Shown here piece after piece: positions 1,874 to 20,881 of a DNA stretch of 59,092 nt. Under the pieces are notes generated by a model that was given only the letters and a program-made list of their open reading frames with translations, ran no database searches and was not told where the DNA came from. Position 1 is the first letter of the stretch; the number at the start of each line of letters is the position of its first letter. Source of the DNA: Candidatus Dadabacteria bacterium (GTDB lineage: Bacteria > Desulfobacterota_D > UBA1144 > Nemesobacterales > Nemesobacteraceae); contig RKRQ01000072.1 of assembly GCA_007571325.1 (NCBI GenBank), positions 1 to 59,092 on the forward strand, written 5' to 3'. Both the position numbers and the translations under genes were made by a program.

Positions 1874-2338
1874 GTGGCGGGGCGTTCCGACGAAAGTATT
1901 ATGGCCCTAGCTATTAGGGAGGCTGAGTATGCCGCATCGGTAGGTGAGGTTCCCGTAGGTGCGGTTATTGTTGATGGAAATGGCGCTGTAATATCTGCGG
2001 CCCATAATCTTAGGGAATCTATTTCAGATGCGACCGCTCATGCCGAGATTTTGGCTATAAGACATGCGTGCGAAACTATCGGAAACTGGAGACTTTCTGA
2101 TACTTCTATTTACGTCACTCTTGAGCCATGTGCCATGTGCATGGGAGCTATAATTAACGCAAGAATGAGAAGGGTAGTATTCGGTGCTCATGATGCCAAG
2201 AGTGGCGCGCTCCTGAGCAATTTTGGGATCGGCACAGGAAAGAAACTAAACCACCGAGTGGAATTTTTAGGGGGAGTCTGCGGCGAACAGTGTGAAAAAA
2301 TCCTTGAAGATTTTTTCAGGGCGCTTAGAAACCGCTAA
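1874..2338 (+). CDS. tadA: tRNA adenosine(34) deaminase
   Basis: EVPVGAV, TAHAE and TLEPCAMC Zn-deaminase motifs; GTG start. Confidence 0.93.
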   Translation: MAGRSDESIMALAIREAEYAASVGEVPVGAVIVDGNGAVISAAHNLRESISDATAHAEILAIRHACETIGNWRLSDTSIYVTLEPCAMCMGAIINARMRRVVFGAHDAKSGALLSNFGIGTGKKLNHRVEFLGGVCGEQCEKILEDFFRALRNR

Positions 2339-2340
2339 TT

Positions 2341-2991
2341 TTATATCTGCGGACTTACGACAATTTTTTTCGAGTTGCCTTTGGTTGGAACAGTTTTGTA
2401 TTTTATGTCCTTCTGCTTGTTAAGCTCAGTGTAGGCTATTTTCCTTTCATAGGATGATAGGTGTTCAATTGAGTGGGAATTTCCACTCTGTTTTACCTTC
2501 TGTACTGTTTCAGCGACTTTTTTGGGTACGTCAGTGTCTTTTCTTTTGCCGTCATATCCAGCGATGTTTATGGCGACCCGCTTGCTCTTTCCCTCATTGC
2601 TACTTTTCGAAGCCATCTTCCCTACTATGTATTCAAGGGATTTTATTATTTCTCCATTCCTTCCTATGAGTGTTTTCTTGTCTTTAACAGACCATACTTC
2701 CAGTATTATCCTGTTTTCGGTCTCCTCCGCTTTTACACTCTGGGGAGTTGAGAACATAAAGCCTAGTATTGTTTCAAGAATCTTTTTCGCCCGAAATGCC
2801 TTTTCGCTCAAACCGCCTGTCTTTATTTCCACCCTTACTATGGCGTTTTTACTGCCTATGCCCAGAACCCCCTTGGAGTCTTCCCTGACAACTTCAATTT
2901 CCACTTCATCTTTTGAAACTCCAAGTTCCTCACAGGCATTCACTATGGCTTCGGAAATAGTTTTTCCTTCTTTTTCTATTAAATTAACCAC
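2341..2991 (-). CDS. jag: Jag/EloR (KhpB) RNA-binding protein (Jag_N, KH, R3H)
   Basis: N-terminal EGKTISEAI..A..ELG, KH LIGRNG, R3H-like LSSYERK; directly downstream of yidC. Confidence 0.88.
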   Translation of the reverse strand: MVNLIEKEGKTISEAIVNACEELGVSKDEVEIEVVREDSKGVLGIGSKNAIVRVEIKTGGLSEKAFRAKKILETILGFMFSTPQSVKAEETENRIILEVWSVKDKKTLIGRNGEIIKSLEYIVGKMASKSSNEGKSKRVAINIAGYDGKRKDTDVPKKVAETVQKVKQSGNSHSIEHLSSYERKIAYTELNKQKDIKYKTVPTKGNSKKIVVSPQI

Positions 2992-2993
2992 CG

Positions 2994-4664
2994 TTATCCT
3001 CCTTCTGGGTTCGGGACCTGTCTATTGATGTACAACTGCTGACCTATGGAGAGAATATTGCTCACAGTCCAGTAAAGTATCAAACCGGATGGCAGTCCCC
3101 AGAACATTACGGTAAAAATTATAGGCATAAATTGCATGAGTTTCATCTGCATTTCCATCGCTTCGCTCCCTGGAGACGTCATAGGGGTGAGTTTCTGCGA
3201 GAAAAACCATGAGATACCCATCAATAGGGGTAGTATACGGAATGGTATCCCTAGCACATCAAATAAATATTCGGGCTGAGATAGGTCATTTATCCAGAGA
3301 AACGAGCTGTGTCTTAAATCTATAGAATAAAGAAGGGCGAAGTAAAGGGCTATAAAAACGGGAAATTGTATCAGTAAAGGTAGACATCCCCCGAGACTGC
3401 TGAGGGGATTTATATTGTTGCTTGTGTAAAGCTTCATCATCTCGGCCTGCTGAGTAGACTTGTCGTTCTTATATTTTTCTTTCAGAGCATCGATTTCAGG
3501 TTTTAGCTTTTTCATCTTGTTCTGCACATCTTTCATCGATTTCATACTTTTCACTGTGAGGGGAAGGAATATGACTCTGAGTAGGATGGTAAGCACGACT
3601 ATTGAGATTCCATAGTTGCTGAAAAAATTATTGATGAACTTAAGAAGTACGATTGCAATCTTGGTAAGTCCCCCCACATAGCCGTAATCAATGGATTTTT
3701 CAAGCTTATATCCGGCCTCTTTGAGGTCCAGTTCGTTTCTCGGACCAAAATATGACTTCCATCCGACCTTATAGCTTTTCCCCGTGGCCGTTCTTTGCTC
3801 CGGGTAGGAGAAATCCGCTCCCGCCAGACCTTTTTCACCAACCGGTTGAAGGTACAATCCCTGATCTCCCCCTATCTCAGGCAAAAACGCACTGAGGAAA
3901 TACTTGTCGCCAAAGCCAAACCAGTTTATTTCTCCATTAAACGCTTTGGGTTCTTTTAAAGATTTCTTGGTTCGTTTGACCTCGCCTCCAACCATAGAGA
4001 CAAATTCATACAGACTGTTTGAACCACTCTCATATACAGAGTTCTCCCAGTCGATATGAACTTTCTGACTTACTTGTCGCTTTGTTCCGTTAAACACTTC
4101 AAGGTTTTCTCTGACAAAATATTTCCCAGGGTAAAAGGAGATAGTTTTGCGCACCGAAAGTCCGTTGGTTTTGTTCCAGACTAAGTTTATATTGAGGCCT
4201 TCAGGACCTACTAAAAGACTCGTATCACCATTGTAGGAGAACGGAATCTGCTCCGGCATTTTTTCGTTTTTAATTCTCAATACTGTGTTATATGAGTTTT
4301 TCCCTTCGGTTATTACCTCCATTGGCAAAGAACCTGTTTCGACCGTCTTTTTGTATTTATGAAGTCCCCAGCCAACCACTTTTCCTCCCAGAGTATCTAT
4401 CTCGGCAGTATACAGGTCAGATTTGATTCTTATTATTTGGGGAACATAAGAATCTTTTACAGGTTCAAATTCCGCAGGAAATTTCTGCAAAAAACCTGTT
4501 TCTTCAGAAAAATTTTCTTTGCCAGAAGGCGTCGATGTGGAGCGATCTATTTTTTCTTGCTTCCTTTCTTTCGGGGCTTCTGTAAAAATTGCCGAGTAAC
4601 CAACAATCACGAGTACCGACAACACCAAAAATAAAATATAGTTTTTCTTAAGATCGCTATTCAT
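2994..4664 (-). CDS. yidC: membrane protein insertase YidC
   Basis: N-terminal TM, large periplasmic domain, NYGISIVVLTILLR, GGCLPLLIQFPVF, PSGLILYW. Confidence 0.97.
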   Translation of the reverse strand: MNSDLKKNYILFLVLSVLVIVGYSAIFTEAPKERKQEKIDRSTSTPSGKENFSEETGFLQKFPAEFEPVKDSYVPQIIRIKSDLYTAEIDTLGGKVVGWGLHKYKKTVETGSLPMEVITEGKNSYNTVLRIKNEKMPEQIPFSYNGDTSLLVGPEGLNINLVWNKTNGLSVRKTISFYPGKYFVRENLEVFNGTKRQVSQKVHIDWENSVYESGSNSLYEFVSMVGGEVKRTKKSLKEPKAFNGEINWFGFGDKYFLSAFLPEIGGDQGLYLQPVGEKGLAGADFSYPEQRTATGKSYKVGWKSYFGPRNELDLKEAGYKLEKSIDYGYVGGLTKIAIVLLKFINNFFSNYGISIVVLTILLRVIFLPLTVKSMKSMKDVQNKMKKLKPEIDALKEKYKNDKSTQQAEMMKLYTSNNINPLSSLGGCLPLLIQFPVFIALYFALLYSIDLRHSSFLWINDLSQPEYLFDVLGIPFRILPLLMGISWFFSQKLTPMTSPGSEAMEMQMKLMQFMPIIFTVMFWGLPSGLILYWTVSNILSIGQQLYINRQVPNPEGG

Positions 4665-15572: not shown

Positions 15573-16286
15573 ATGAAAAAAGTGGCTCTAGTTACAGGTG
15601 GGGCGGTGAGAATAGGCAAACAGATTTCTCTTAACCTCGCACAAAAGGGATATGACATTGCTCTTCATTACAATTCTTCGCGAAAAGAGGCTCTTGCGAC
15701 GAGGAAACAGATACTGAAAACCGGCTCGAGATGCGAGCTTTTCCATTGTGACCTCTCATCCACTGAGGATGCGAGAGAGCTTGTTCCGAAAGTAATGAAA
15801 AGCTTCAATGGGCTATGCGTTCTTGTTAATAACGCCTCAATCTTCGAGAACGTGAGGTTTGGTGACGTGACGCCCGAATTTCTGGAAAAGGATATGGCCA
15901 TAAATTTTAAAGCTCCTTTTTTTCTTTCCCAGTCTTTTTCCACAGCGGTAGACAAGGGGCTTATAATTAATTTTCTTGACACAAGAGTCAAAAAAAATTC
16001 CGTTGAGCACTTCTGCTACAATCTAAGCAAAAAGTCCCTTTATCACTTAACGAAAATGCTCGCAAGGGAACTCGCTCCCGATTTTCGGGTAAATGCCGTG
16101 TGTCCTGGACCCATTCTCGCTCCCCATGGATTTGGGGAAGATTACCTTTTAGAGATGGCAAGAAGAACTCCACTGAAGCAGCCGGGCTCTGTTGAGTATA
16201 TAATAAACGCGTTTAATTATTTTCTGGAAAACGATTACGTTACTGGAGAATGTCTTTTCGTTGACGGAGGCAAGAGTCTTACCTAG
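15573..16286 (+). CDS. pteridine reductase-type SDR (FolM/PTR1-like)
   Basis: TGGAVRIG, VNNAS, YNLSK catalytic motif; adjacent to folB/folK. Confidence 0.8.
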   Translation: MKKVALVTGGAVRIGKQISLNLAQKGYDIALHYNSSRKEALATRKQILKTGSRCELFHCDLSSTEDARELVPKVMKSFNGLCVLVNNASIFENVRFGDVTPEFLEKDMAINFKAPFFLSQSFSTAVDKGLIINFLDTRVKKNSVEHFCYNLSKKSLYHLTKMLARELAPDFRVNAVCPGPILAPHGFGEDYLLEMARRTPLKQPGSVEYIINAFNYFLENDYVTGECLFVDGGKSLT

Positions 16287-16290
16287 TTAG

Positions 16291-16638
16291 ATGATAATAA
16301 AAATCGAAAACCTGAGACTTCGTACAATAATAGGGATTTATGACTGGGAGAAGAAGAACCGTCAGGACCTAATTATAAATGTCACTGTTGATTTTGACGG
16401 GAGCAAAGCTGCCAAGAGCGACAATATAGAAGATACTTTTGACTATAAAGCGATAAACAAAAAAATCATCAGCTTTGTAGAGACAAACGATTTTAATCTG
16501 CTTGAGAGGGTTGCAGCCGGCATATGCGATATGGTTTTTGAGGAGCCTGCAGTCAGAGGAGCGTCTGTAAAGGTGGAAAAACCCGGAGCGCTTCGCTTTG
16601 CCGATTCCGTTTCAGTGACAGAAGTGAGAGATAGGTAG
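16291..16638 (+). CDS. folB: dihydroneopterin aldolase / dihydroneopterin triphosphate epimerase (FolB/FolX T-fold)
   Basis: IENLRLRTIIGIYDWE..RQ, DYK, LLE..A, VEKPGA; FolB versus FolX not resolved. Confidence 0.82.
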   Translation: MIIKIENLRLRTIIGIYDWEKKNRQDLIINVTVDFDGSKAAKSDNIEDTFDYKAINKKIISFVETNDFNLLERVAAGICDMVFEEPAVRGASVKVEKPGALRFADSVSVTEVRDR

Positions 16639-16839
16639 ATGAAACCAAGCTATTTTTGCACTCATCTTAAAAACAACTCTACTTAAAAAGCTTTTTCGCA
16701 ATTTTGAAACCGTACTTAAAATTCACCAGTCTATGTAAAATACGATCTTGATAAGAGAGTTCTTCAGGATTCTAATCCATTAGGAAGAGGCGAGGTTTTT
16801 GGACACGAACTGTTCTCAAAACAGAAAGAGTATCAGGGT

Positions 16840-17784
16840 ATGAATACGGTCATTATAGCAGTTGGTTCAAATATAGATGCCGAGAGCAACATAAACGTTG
16901 CAAAGCGAATGCTTAGTGAAAAACTCATCGTTTTAGCAGAGTCGAAATTCGTAAGAACTAAACCCATAGGGTATCAAGAGCAGCAGGATTTTTTAAATGG
17001 TTCCTTGCTGATAAAAACCCGTCTTGGCGCCAAGCGTCTGAAGAAACTGCTTAAAGGTGTGGAAATTTCTCTTGGAAGGGATATGGAGGAGGATCGTTAC
17101 GGACCGAGAAAAATGGACTTGGATATAGTTGTTTGGAATGGAGAGATAGTTGATTCTGACGTTTACAGAAGGGAATTTCTTCGCCGTTCCATTGTTGAAC
17201 TTTGTCCTGAACTTGAAAAAAAACTGAAAGATAAACAGGACTTCCCTGACGAAGCTGAAATCCCAGAAGAGATCGTGCTTACGAAGCTTTTCTCAAAGAA
17301 CGATATAAAAAACGCCATTAGCAAACTAGCCAAGCAAATTTCTATAGACTATGAAGGAAGAAATCCTGTTTTAGTCTGCGTTTTGCTGGGAGCACGACCA
17401 TTTTTTGAGGATCTCTCAGAGCATATAACCGTAAAGATAGAACAACGGTTCCTAAGAATTTCAAGTTATAAACATGCGACGCGCCCCGGACCCGCTGAGC
17501 TTTTAATGGACATTGAGTGCGAATTGGAAGGTAGGGATGTTGTAATCGTTGAGGATGTAATTGAAACTTCAAAGACGATGAAGTTTATCCTGCGGCAAAT
17601 GGAATCAAAGAACCCAAGCTCAGTTCGTGTATGCGCGCTTATAGATAAAAGGGGAAAAGATGCAACAGGTTTGGGACCTGATTACATGGGTTTTCAAGTG
17701 GATACAGGATTTCTTGTGGGTTACGGAATGGACTACATGGACAAGGGAAGAAACCTTGAGGACATATATTTGCTCCGGGGGTGA
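16840..17784 (+). CDS. fusion: HPPK (FolK, aa 1-~125) + hypoxanthine phosphoribosyltransferase-like domain (aa ~146-314)
   Basis: AVGSNI, QQDFLN, RYGPRKMDLDI (FolK); then VLVCVLLGA, ISSY, VIVEDVIETSKT, FLVGYGMDY (HPRT); one continuous ORF. Confidence 0.88.
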   Translation: MNTVIIAVGSNIDAESNINVAKRMLSEKLIVLAESKFVRTKPIGYQEQQDFLNGSLLIKTRLGAKRLKKLLKGVEISLGRDMEEDRYGPRKMDLDIVVWNGEIVDSDVYRREFLRRSIVELCPELEKKLKDKQDFPDEAEIPEEIVLTKLFSKNDIKNAISKLAKQISIDYEGRNPVLVCVLLGARPFFEDLSEHITVKIEQRFLRISSYKHATRPGPAELLMDIECELEGRDVVIVEDVIETSKTMKFILRQMESKNPSSVRVCALIDKRGKDATGLGPDYMGFQVDTGFLVGYGMDYMDKGRNLEDIYLLRG

Positions 17785-19627: not shown

Positions 19628-20470
19628 TTACTGCAAATGGGAATAGCTTTTCTCGTACTTACTCACAATCTTACTTACAACGGAATAATGAACGGACACT
19701 GCGGCTGCAACCTCTTTTAGGGTGTAGTTCCCTGTCAGGTAGGTTTTTGCTATTGCCTCATCCATTGAATGTCCGCTTTGGATTAAGCCGTTTATTATGC
19801 TTGATACAGGTTTTGTGATCTGATACTTGGGAATACCTTCTGACCACGAACCTTTTATTTTTTTCTGTACAAACTCTATGAATTTGTCGTCGCCTAGGTA
19901 TATCTGCTTTCGGACCTCAGAGAGTAAGTCACGCAAAAGATTTTTGTCTAAAAATTTATCAAATCTGTCTGTGTCAGAAGAGAAGCCTTTGGAGAACCAG
20001 TCAAGGTTTATGTAGCTAGGCCTTTCATTTTTTCCATAAAGGTATCTGCAGGTACTCCATTTGAACTGGTTCGGGAGTTTTACAAAACCGGCTCTAAGCG
20101 GGAGAAGAAAGATATGAGCCAGAAGAGGGAGAAGATATTTTTCCCTCTGAACAACTATAGATTTATATCTTCCCCGGAAAACATGTCCATCCGTGTGATG
20201 CAATCTGTTTGAACTTTGGGTGTAAACGCCGTTTAACTGACGTATAGATTTTGAGAGATTTGGTTTTGGGGTCTCTATGACAAGATGATATCCATCAGGC
20301 ATAAGGCAGTAGGCGAGGCAGTTACAGGTAAATCTTCTGCATACACCCTCAAGGATATCTATCCAAGCATTGCCGTCCGCAGAGTTTTGAAAAACGCTCT
20401 GTCCCCTGTTTCCTTTGGAAGAAATATAGTATACTGCCCCAGCATATTCTGGTCTTAAAGGTCTCGCCAT
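19628..20470 (-). CDS. REP-associated tyrosine transposase (RAYT, Y1_Tnp)-like protein with C-terminal HTH; catalytic residues degenerate
   Basis: MARPLRPEYAGAVYYISSKGN, YCLMPDGYHL, GHVFRGRYKS, C-terminal YTLKEVA..VHYSVVSKIV; ATG20470 preferred over the track start 20542. Confidence 0.85.
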   Translation of the reverse strand: MARPLRPEYAGAVYYISSKGNRGQSVFQNSADGNAWIDILEGVCRRFTCNCLAYCLMPDGYHLVIETPKPNLSKSIRQLNGVYTQSSNRLHHTDGHVFRGRYKSIVVQREKYLLPLLAHIFLLPLRAGFVKLPNQFKWSTCRYLYGKNERPSYINLDWFSKGFSSDTDRFDKFLDKNLLRDLLSEVRKQIYLGDDKFIEFVQKKIKGSWSEGIPKYQITKPVSSIINGLIQSGHSMDEAIAKTYLTGNYTLKEVAAAVSVHYSVVSKIVSKYEKSYSHLQ

Positions 20471-20881
20471 AAAAGGATTATAAAGAAATTGGGAAATTAT
20501 TTCAAGACCTGACCCTGACCCTTGTAATGTCTCAAAACTCAAGAGCCGTGATGATAAACGTCAAATTTTCTCTTGATGGTTTGTAGGGAAACACTGAAAC
20601 GGGAAGACAGAAAATATCTCTAACTGAGGTTTCTCACAAATCAGGTGTTTGCTAAGTATAGTATACTATTGACCAATTTATTATAGTCTGCCTAGCGCAT
20701 TTAGGTTAAGTGACTTAAAAAAATAATGAATACAATTGTGAAAATTAAAAAACTGTTTTAACTTTGGGGTCCACCTCTCTCCGTCTTTTTAAATGGAAGC
20801 AGGTCTCAAACAATTTTTGAGATTTATCTTCTTCCATTCCCTAACCCAGGAATTACTCAATTCTAAACTGCACTCAATGGC

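Follow-up and report, generated by a model that had tools for sequence, protein, structure and literature searches.

Why should an enzyme of pterin synthesis and an enzyme of purine salvage be made as one protein? The question is raised by a gene on contig RKRQ01000072.1 of a Candidatus Dadabacteria bacterium (assembly GCA_007571325.1), a stretch of 59,092 nucleotides from a sponge metagenome that was analysed at its full length and is called the window here. The open reading frame (ORF) at 16840..17784 on the plus strand encodes 314 amino acids, in which a FolK-like (HPPK) domain is followed by a linker and by a 6-oxopurine phosphoribosyltransferase (Hpt) domain. The original prediction read this protein as a new physical link between folate synthesis and purine salvage, with a degenerate phosphoribosyl pyrophosphate (PRPP) loop that had turned Hpt into a sensor or changed its substrate. 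Our analysis supports a genuine new fusion of a FolK-like domain to Hpt, and argues against both the degenerate loop and the sensor. We consider it probable that the fusion is essentially neutral, hard-wiring the 1:1 expression of an active Hpt with a FolK-like partner while each domain works alone.

The architecture itself is clear. Pfam profiles place HPPK at residues 5-123 (75.8 bits, cut-off 25.7) and Pribosyltran at residues 154-299 (84.6 bits). NCBIfam TIGR01498 folK matches the ORF with 73.9 bits against a cut-off of 54.1, and TIGR01203 HGPRTase passes its cut-off of 150 by a narrow margin (150.2 bits, and 152 bits in a whole-genome profile scan). Alignment to the genome's own FolK delimits a short HPPK paralogue domain, which we call HPPK', at residues 1-125 (16840..17214, plus strand). 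The Hpt domain, assigned by TIGR01203, lies at 17272..17781 (plus strand), and between the two runs a charged, disordered linker, EKKLKDKQDFPDEAEIPEE, at residues 126-144 (17215..17271, plus strand). The ORF and both sets of profiles thus bear out the single frame with an HPPK domain, a charged linker and a full HPRT domain, and the positions first quoted for the linker, for the VEDVIETSKT loop (residues 237-246) and for LLG (residues 182-184) are correct.

The linker DNA contains a run of eight A (17216-17223) at which a one-nucleotide error breaks the frame, and for this reason we checked the junction for a homopolymer artefact. A miscounted run could falsely join two genes, and there are close relatives that lie one base apart in A or G runs. 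Nonetheless, Logan contigs assembled independently from three sponge-metagenome runs of different samples (X1, X2 and X3) cross the junction without indels and with few single-nucleotide polymorphisms (SNPs); no frame break between the domains occurs across them. A second assembly encodes a near-identical protein that is also 314 amino acids long (P0001), and orthologous fusions are in frame in six other species of the genus, with different linkers and, in four of the six, in single-contig genomes. Because the contigs of the three samples, the second assembly and the six congeners all agree, the fusion ORF is genuine, and we regard the chance of a sequencing or assembly artefact as close to nil. 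Of the SNPs of the sponge populations (17317, 17128, 17329, 17521 and 16933), one is synonymous, and the four non-synonymous ones are conservative (V97I, I160V, A164T and E228K).

In an AlphaFold2 model of the fusion (mean predicted local distance difference test score, pLDDT, 86.7; predicted template modelling score 0.54) two confident folded domains are separated by linker residues 133-143 with pLDDT below 50. Nothing in the predicted structure suggests a fixed interdomain interface.

How widespread is this architecture? A word-indexed search of 5.8 billion proteins returned nine clusters (at 90% identity) that hold both domains, with identities to the query of 55% or more. Ranked after these were stand-alone Hpt proteins of 172-200 amino acids, one of them named Candidatus Dadabacteria. 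When 1.84 billion representatives at 50% identity were searched with HMMER, both domains were covered by one representative only (P0007); the remaining long matches are unrelated architectures, and proteins of the size of TilS-Hpt (463-496 amino acids, Hpt C-terminal) were among the matches. A literature search turned up no description of an HPPK-HPRT fusion, nor any work on folate in the Dadabacteria of sponges. The HPPK'-Hpt architecture has not been previously described and is confined to one Dadabacteria genus; the impression that a FolK-Hpt fusion was unfamiliar is well founded.

Even in this genus the distribution is narrow. Searching 120 genomes of the phylum, we found HPPK' and Hpt fused in frame in 7 of the 36 species of the source genus. 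Most congeners keep HPPK' and hpt as separate genes, a point that the original prediction had overlooked: the HPPK-like ORF is directly followed by hpt in a different, overlapping frame. The two genes are also adjacent in other families of the order (genomes G032, G018, G021, G020 and G078), and they are unlinked in the family f8.

Which half of the protein has diverged? Judged by the alignments it is HPPK, not Hpt, which had gone unnoticed together with the presence of a canonical FolK. This canonical FolK is encoded elsewhere in the genome, next to the genes of FolD and a pterin carbinolamine dehydratase; it carries LVIPHP and scores 133 bits in the genome scan, compared to 78 bits for the HPPK' of the fusion. 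Aligned with it, HPPK' is missing an eight-residue segment, SLVIPHPK, and the C-terminal ~30 residues. The segment is deleted in every HPPK' that we aligned, and the alignment of HPPK' with E. coli HPPK ends at residue 107. HPPK' retains the GSN of loop 1, Thr40, Asn53, Glu75, Arg80, Arg90, Asp93, Asp95 and Phe113, and the equivalents of E. coli Thr42, Asn55, Glu77, Arg82, Arg92, Asp95, Asp97 and Phe123 are invariant in the family alignment. The deleted L-x-(I/V)-P-H-P segment is the one with Arg110, Thr112 and His115 of the E. coli enzyme, which we take to bind the adenine and the alpha-phosphate of ATP.

The idea that HPPK' is the sole HPPK of the organism fails, since canonical FolK coexists with it and folP, which is present in the genome, is located away from it. 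HPPK' is therefore not the housekeeping FolK; it is an accessory short paralogue. Because the pterin and Mg/phosphate residues are kept and the segment for the adenine and alpha-phosphate of ATP is lost, we propose that HPPK' is most likely a pterin-dependent phosphoryl-transfer enzyme that uses a different phosphate donor or substrate.

The Hpt domain looks far more ordinary. Its best PDB match is 4qri (E 6e-36), Foldseek superimposes it on 3o7m with a template modelling (TM) score of 0.93, and the structure search of the model returned nothing beyond HPRT matches. We sought a second canonical hpt by a profile scan of the genome and found none. The only other notable phosphoribosyltransferase (PRT) match is PyrR, next to pyrB, and the Hpt of the fusion is the genome's only HPRT. 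The alignments show that it retains Glu238, Asp239, Thr243, Lys245, Thr246, Lys270, Phe291, Asp298, Arg304 and Ser209-Tyr210. Among these, the purine-binding Lys270 (human K165), Phe291-Leu292, Asp298 (human Asp193) and Ser209-Tyr210 are invariant or nearly so among homologues.

The supposed degeneracy concerns the PRPP/5'-phosphate loop VEDVIETSKT (17548..17577, plus strand). Relative to the pattern E-D-x-x-D-T/S-G-x-T, the loop keeps the E-D pair and its Thr, Lys and Thr; Glu242 takes the place of the Asp that follows the pair, and Ser244 that of the Gly. A tally of 104 homologues gave DTG in 56, DTS in 30, DSG in 15, DTA in 2 and ETS in a single one. The change from Gly to Ser (DTS) is common to the whole Dadabacteria clade, fused or not. 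For HGPRT, the contact of Gly139 with the 5'-phosphate is made by the backbone amide, and the active Leishmania HGPRT carries Ala at this position (PMC2228302, Table 2). The LKG lysine, which is Leu in the fusion, is variable as well (K in 47 homologues, N in 21, L in 12 and R in 7), and the position reads LNG in the solved Thermus enzyme and LTG in the HGXPRT entry 1hgx. With one change found across the clade and the other position variable in solved enzymes, the first reading of the loop as degenerate is not supported, and only the change from Asp to Glu is unusual. This substitution is private to the source species (1 of the 104 homologues); the fused orthologues in the six other species retain Asp. 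Canyuk and colleagues are said to have found in 2001, in the HPRT of Trypanosoma cruzi, that Glu and Gln substitutions of this Asp are functional. The PDB holds T. cruzi HPRT mutants of the "invariant aspartic acid", including a liganded Glu mutant (1I14).

Could the Hpt domain nevertheless have ceased to be a normal HPRT, and sense PRPP, purines or (p)ppGpp, or act on a changed substrate, so as to control the attached pterin enzyme? The rarity of Glu at this otherwise invariant Asp would fit such a role, as would the faster evolution of Hpt in the source lineage and the four non-synonymous changes among the five SNPs. Salvage may also be dispensable given de novo purine synthesis in the genus, where purH is present in 35 of 35 congeners. 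However, the other features taken as signs of decay are clade-wide or vary among active enzymes, the remaining catalytic and binding residues are all kept, and the domain is the only HPRT that the genome has and scores above the TIGR01203 cut-off. The six other fused species keep Asp, so that the fusion is independent of the substitution, and Glu at this same site has been crystallised with ligand. The linker is predicted to be disordered, which leaves no fixed interface. We consider a sensor or a changed substrate quite unlikely. Judging from these residues, the domain is probably an active, ordinary hypoxanthine/guanine phosphoribosyltransferase, perhaps slowed by the change from Asp to Glu. 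Since all 35 congeners have purH, salvage is probably non-essential and a slower Hpt would be tolerated.

The same count led us to reject purine auxotrophy, under which Hpt would have been essential. purH (AICARFT/IMPCH) was not found in the source assembly (G000, 1.3 Mb in 105 contigs), and this absence is most likely an assembly gap.

How, then, is Hpt made where the genes are separate? In most congeners, those with split genes, the HPPK-like ORF closes with ...ELCPELEKTLKE(E/G)RG(P/T/S/A)(A/V/D) and the stop codon TGA. Relative to it, hpt is read in the +1 frame, and an in-frame TGA just upstream leaves only 20 open codons before the conserved core. At least 20 of the 23 split species have no ATG, GTG or TTG among those 20 codons. 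Instead, codon 6 is an invariant CTG, located 5 nt before the HPPK' stop (CTGyCTGA), and AAGGAGG or a close variant lies 9 nt upstream of this CTG. The pattern of CTG and AAGGAGG was seen in loci L016-L038, at the junction that corresponds to 17215-17290 of the window. Because hpt has no canonical start, overlaps the end of HPPK' and is preceded by a perfect AAGGAGG, its translation would depend on the upstream gene. We infer that the Hpt of split congeners starts by Shine-Dalgarno-assisted CTG initiation or by re-initiation, coupled to the upstream termination. The source species has its own linker sequence, and comparison with the congeners shows that this DNA is without an internal Shine-Dalgarno.

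The same anatomy could be read in another way. All species might make the fusion protein, the split genomes by a programmed +1 frameshift at xCT-GyC-TGA, with the fused genes being hard-wired versions. The missing canonical start of hpt in most split species, a stop that is always TGA and the purine-rich, Shine-Dalgarno-like sequence upstream of it are all reminiscent of prfB. Nevertheless, the codon before TGA varies (GCC, GTC, GCT or GAC), making +1 re-pairing impossible, conservation is lacking for the G-rich element 3 nt upstream, and the spacing of 9 nt from AAGGAGG to CTG resembles that of an initiation site. One split genome (L029) would moreover require a -1 rather than a +1 shift. With a variable codon before TGA and a genome that needs the opposite shift, a prfB-like mechanism is very improbable, and coupled initiation at CTG remains our preferred reading of the split junctions.

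Fused genes and their split sisters are set apart by very small indels. The fused L012 has a run of five G where its split sister L021 has six, and the split L029 (A5) is nested among fused species with A6. L029 (also L006; genome G063) is a closed genome within a fused clade, in which A5 in place of the A6 of L010, L013 and L014 gives ELEKH followed by a stop, leaving hpt as a gene of its own. Either the frames were split again very recently, or the long reads miscounted the homopolymer. We also considered the poly-A run alone as the toggle of the fusion, which proved partly right: most split species differ by indels in GGAGG or in the G-run, not in the A-run. Because a maximum-likelihood tree of the concatenated domains requires at least three changes between the fused and the split state, the fusion is recent and recurrent, and it may be reversible.

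Next, we consider the partner that Hpt has joined. A pattern scan of one genome per species yielded 383 HPPK' loci, whose hosts include Dadabacteria, Binatia, SAR324, Omnitrophota, Planctomycetes, Bacteroidales, Glassbacteria, KSB1 and Hormoscilla, the last a cyanobacterial sponge symbiont. Canonical HPPK was found as well in 17 of 17 diverse HPPK' genomes tested. Across the phylum the HPPK scores are bimodal: families f1, f4, f7 and f8 have HPPK', nearly always together with canonical FolK (the few genomes that lack the latter are incompletely assembled), and families f2, f3, f5, f6 and f9 have canonical FolK only. Clustering of the neighbours of 56 diverse HPPK' loci gave a FolM/PTR1-type reductase at 39 and a FolB-family gene at 33 of them; Hpt was not among the conserved neighbours at these loci.

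HPPK' has joined other proteins elsewhere. It forms the C-terminal part of proteins with a RAYT/HUH-transposase-like domain that carries an HFH motif (P0048-P0105), and the N-terminal part of proteins with GTP cyclohydrolase I (P0102 and P0172) or with an uncharacterised domain of ~230 amino acids (P0151). The short HPPK' is a promiscuous fusion partner.

In the window, the module starts with a FolM/PTR1-type short-chain reductase at 15573..16286 (plus strand), which has the TGGAVRIG motif and matches Pfam adh_short_C2 with 119.9 bits; its scores for PRK09134 (217.9 bits) and for the pteridine reductase PRK09135 (194.5 bits) are both under the cut-offs. It is followed at 16291..16638 (plus strand) by a gene of the FolB family (dihydroneopterin aldolase/epimerase; Pfam FolB 112.2 bits), the only one in the genome. 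This gene scores 83.3 bits for TIGR00525 folB (cut-off 72.15) and 134.4 bits for FolX NF008418 (cut-off 152), and FolB adjoins HPPK' in the coordinates of the relatives that we compared. FolB as a gene specific to the module was rejected, a single-copy FolB being present also in two families without HPPK'.

Putting these observations together, the fusion is a recent in-frame joining of neighbouring genes whose translation is probably coupled in most relatives. Its upstream partner is the HPPK' of a conserved three-gene pterin module (FolM-like reductase, FolB and HPPK'), and its downstream partner the sole, and probably ordinary, hypoxanthine/guanine phosphoribosyltransferase. Small indels in the A-runs and G-runs of the short junction would have brought the two frames together in some species and parted them anew. 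In the source species the internal ribosome-binding site is missing, so that Hpt is presumably made as the C-terminal part of the fusion and in no other form. Each domain is predicted to fold on its own, on a floppy linker, and the reactions they would catalyse are non-consecutive; for both reasons we propose that the fusion fixes 1:1 co-expression and brings no new mechanism.

A metabolic coupling is the alternative to such neutrality. HPPK' and Hpt might form a complex, or be co-regulated, to steer guanine salvage toward the GTP-derived pterins, and the fusion would then have been selected. The pair is adjacent and tightly overlapped in several families of the order, the fusion has arisen at least twice, and HPPK' is also fused to GTP cyclohydrolase I, the GTP-consuming first enzyme of pterin synthesis. 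Against this stand the absence of hpt from the module outside Dadabacteria, judged by the conserved neighbours at the 56 diverse loci, the unlinked genes of family f8 and the two reactions, which do not follow each other. Most congeners are unfused, and one fused clade holds a re-split member. We judge adaptive coupling to be rather unlikely.

Several findings nonetheless weigh against an essentially neutral fusion of an active Hpt. HPPK' and hpt are neighbours in other families of the order as well, and the fusion arose more than once, which could mean that a physical or regulatory link has been selected for and that the fusion is not neutral. The Hpt domain of the source species is more diverged than that of its congeners (mean identity 67.5% versus ~80%), and the sole Glu at the catalytic Asp position lies in the fusion of this very species. 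Finally, four of the five SNPs in the sponge populations are non-synonymous, a hint that constraint may be relaxed or altered.

What HPPK' itself does may matter more. One tentative idea, to which we give a small chance, is that it carries out a different pterin step, for example as a non-Nudix dihydroneopterin or dihydromonapterin triphosphate pyrophosphatase, or by pterin pyrophosphorylation with a donor other than ATP. Since the adenosine pocket is lost and the pterin and Mg-polyphosphate sites are kept, HPPK' may act on a single molecule that carries both pterin and triphosphate. To our knowledge, the pterin-triphosphate pyrophosphatase step has no gene assigned in most bacteria. If the idea of a different step is true, the fusions to Hpt and to GTP cyclohydrolase I would tie HPPK' to the GTP end of the pathway. 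Two other roles for the module were rejected: the methanopterin branch, as none of the 27 genomes tested has methenyl-H4MPT cyclohydrolase (Mch), and supply of a tetrahydropterin cofactor for a PhhA-type hydroxylase, as Biopterin_H is missing from all 120 genomes of the phylum.

The spacer between FolB and HPPK' (16639..16839, plus strand) has partly conserved promoter-like and terminator-like sequence. It includes a promoter-like site at 16695-16722 and a block conserved in congeners, TTGAAACC.TACTTAA.ATTCA...ATGTAAAATACG. Several congeners have a terminator-like hairpin after folB. In L012 and L021 the whole spacer is deleted and HPPK' begins with GTG right after folB, and in L007 a 663-amino-acid ORF without a Pfam match (2191-4182) is inserted between folB and HPPK'. 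No riboswitch was found by an Rfam search of the ~200-nt spacer, and the whole window yields only three tRNAs.

About 2 kb downstream of the fusion, a RAYT/Y1_Tnp-like ORF (19628-20542, minus strand; Pfam 32 bits) is syntenic in L006 and L007. It is weakly similar (E 3e-5) to the RAYT-like domain that is fused to HPPK' in other taxa. This double association of RAYT with HPPK' may be coincidental.

The fusion itself is a small evolutionary curiosity, probably of little consequence. The locus shows how overlapping, coupled genes can fuse and split again by one-nucleotide indels in short homopolymers. For annotators it is a caution, as a label such as "bifunctional FolK/Hpt" tells little about function here. 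HPPK' is a widespread and unstudied FolK paralogue that automatic annotation calls FolK despite the missing ATP-adenine segment, and its reaction, once worked out, could fill a long-standing gap in bacterial pterin metabolism.

Second folK copies whose function is untested, and reductases like FolM encoded in clusters of pterin genes, were noted earlier (de Crecy-Lagard et al. 2007, PMC1971073). HPPK' resembles the FolK1/FolK2 pairs of that paper (for example in Shewanella and Xylella) by description, being a second folK copy with a TGxxxRxG reductase by folB/folK; PMC1971073 describes neither the short form, nor its deletion, nor any Hpt fusion. With FolK/HPPK (PF01288, TIGR01498; E. coli 1hka and 1q0n) HPPK' shares the alignable N-terminal ~107 residues, the GSN of loop 1, the pterin ligands (Thr, Asn and Phe), the Glu, the two catalytic Arg and the two Mg-binding Asp. 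It differs in lacking the LxIPHP segment and the C-terminal ~30 residues, in co-occurring with canonical FolK and in belonging to an operon of reductase, FolB and HPPK' instead of one with folP or pan genes.

The other half of the fusion has the full-length type I PRT fold of Hpt/HGPRT (TIGR01203; PDB 4qri, 1hgx, 3o7m and E. coli 1g9s), with the PRPP loop, the Ser-Tyr of the flexible loop, the purine-binding Lys and the Asp of the VGYG.DY motif. It differs in being made as the C-terminal domain of a larger protein, with Glu for the invariant catalytic Asp, Ser for the loop Gly and Leu for the LKG Lys. HPPK and Hpt are both frequent fusion partners, and FolB-FolK-FolP as well as TilS-Hpt fusions are known. 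The FolB, FolK and FolP fusions join consecutive steps of one pathway, whereas HPPK'-Hpt joins two enzymes whose steps are not consecutive.

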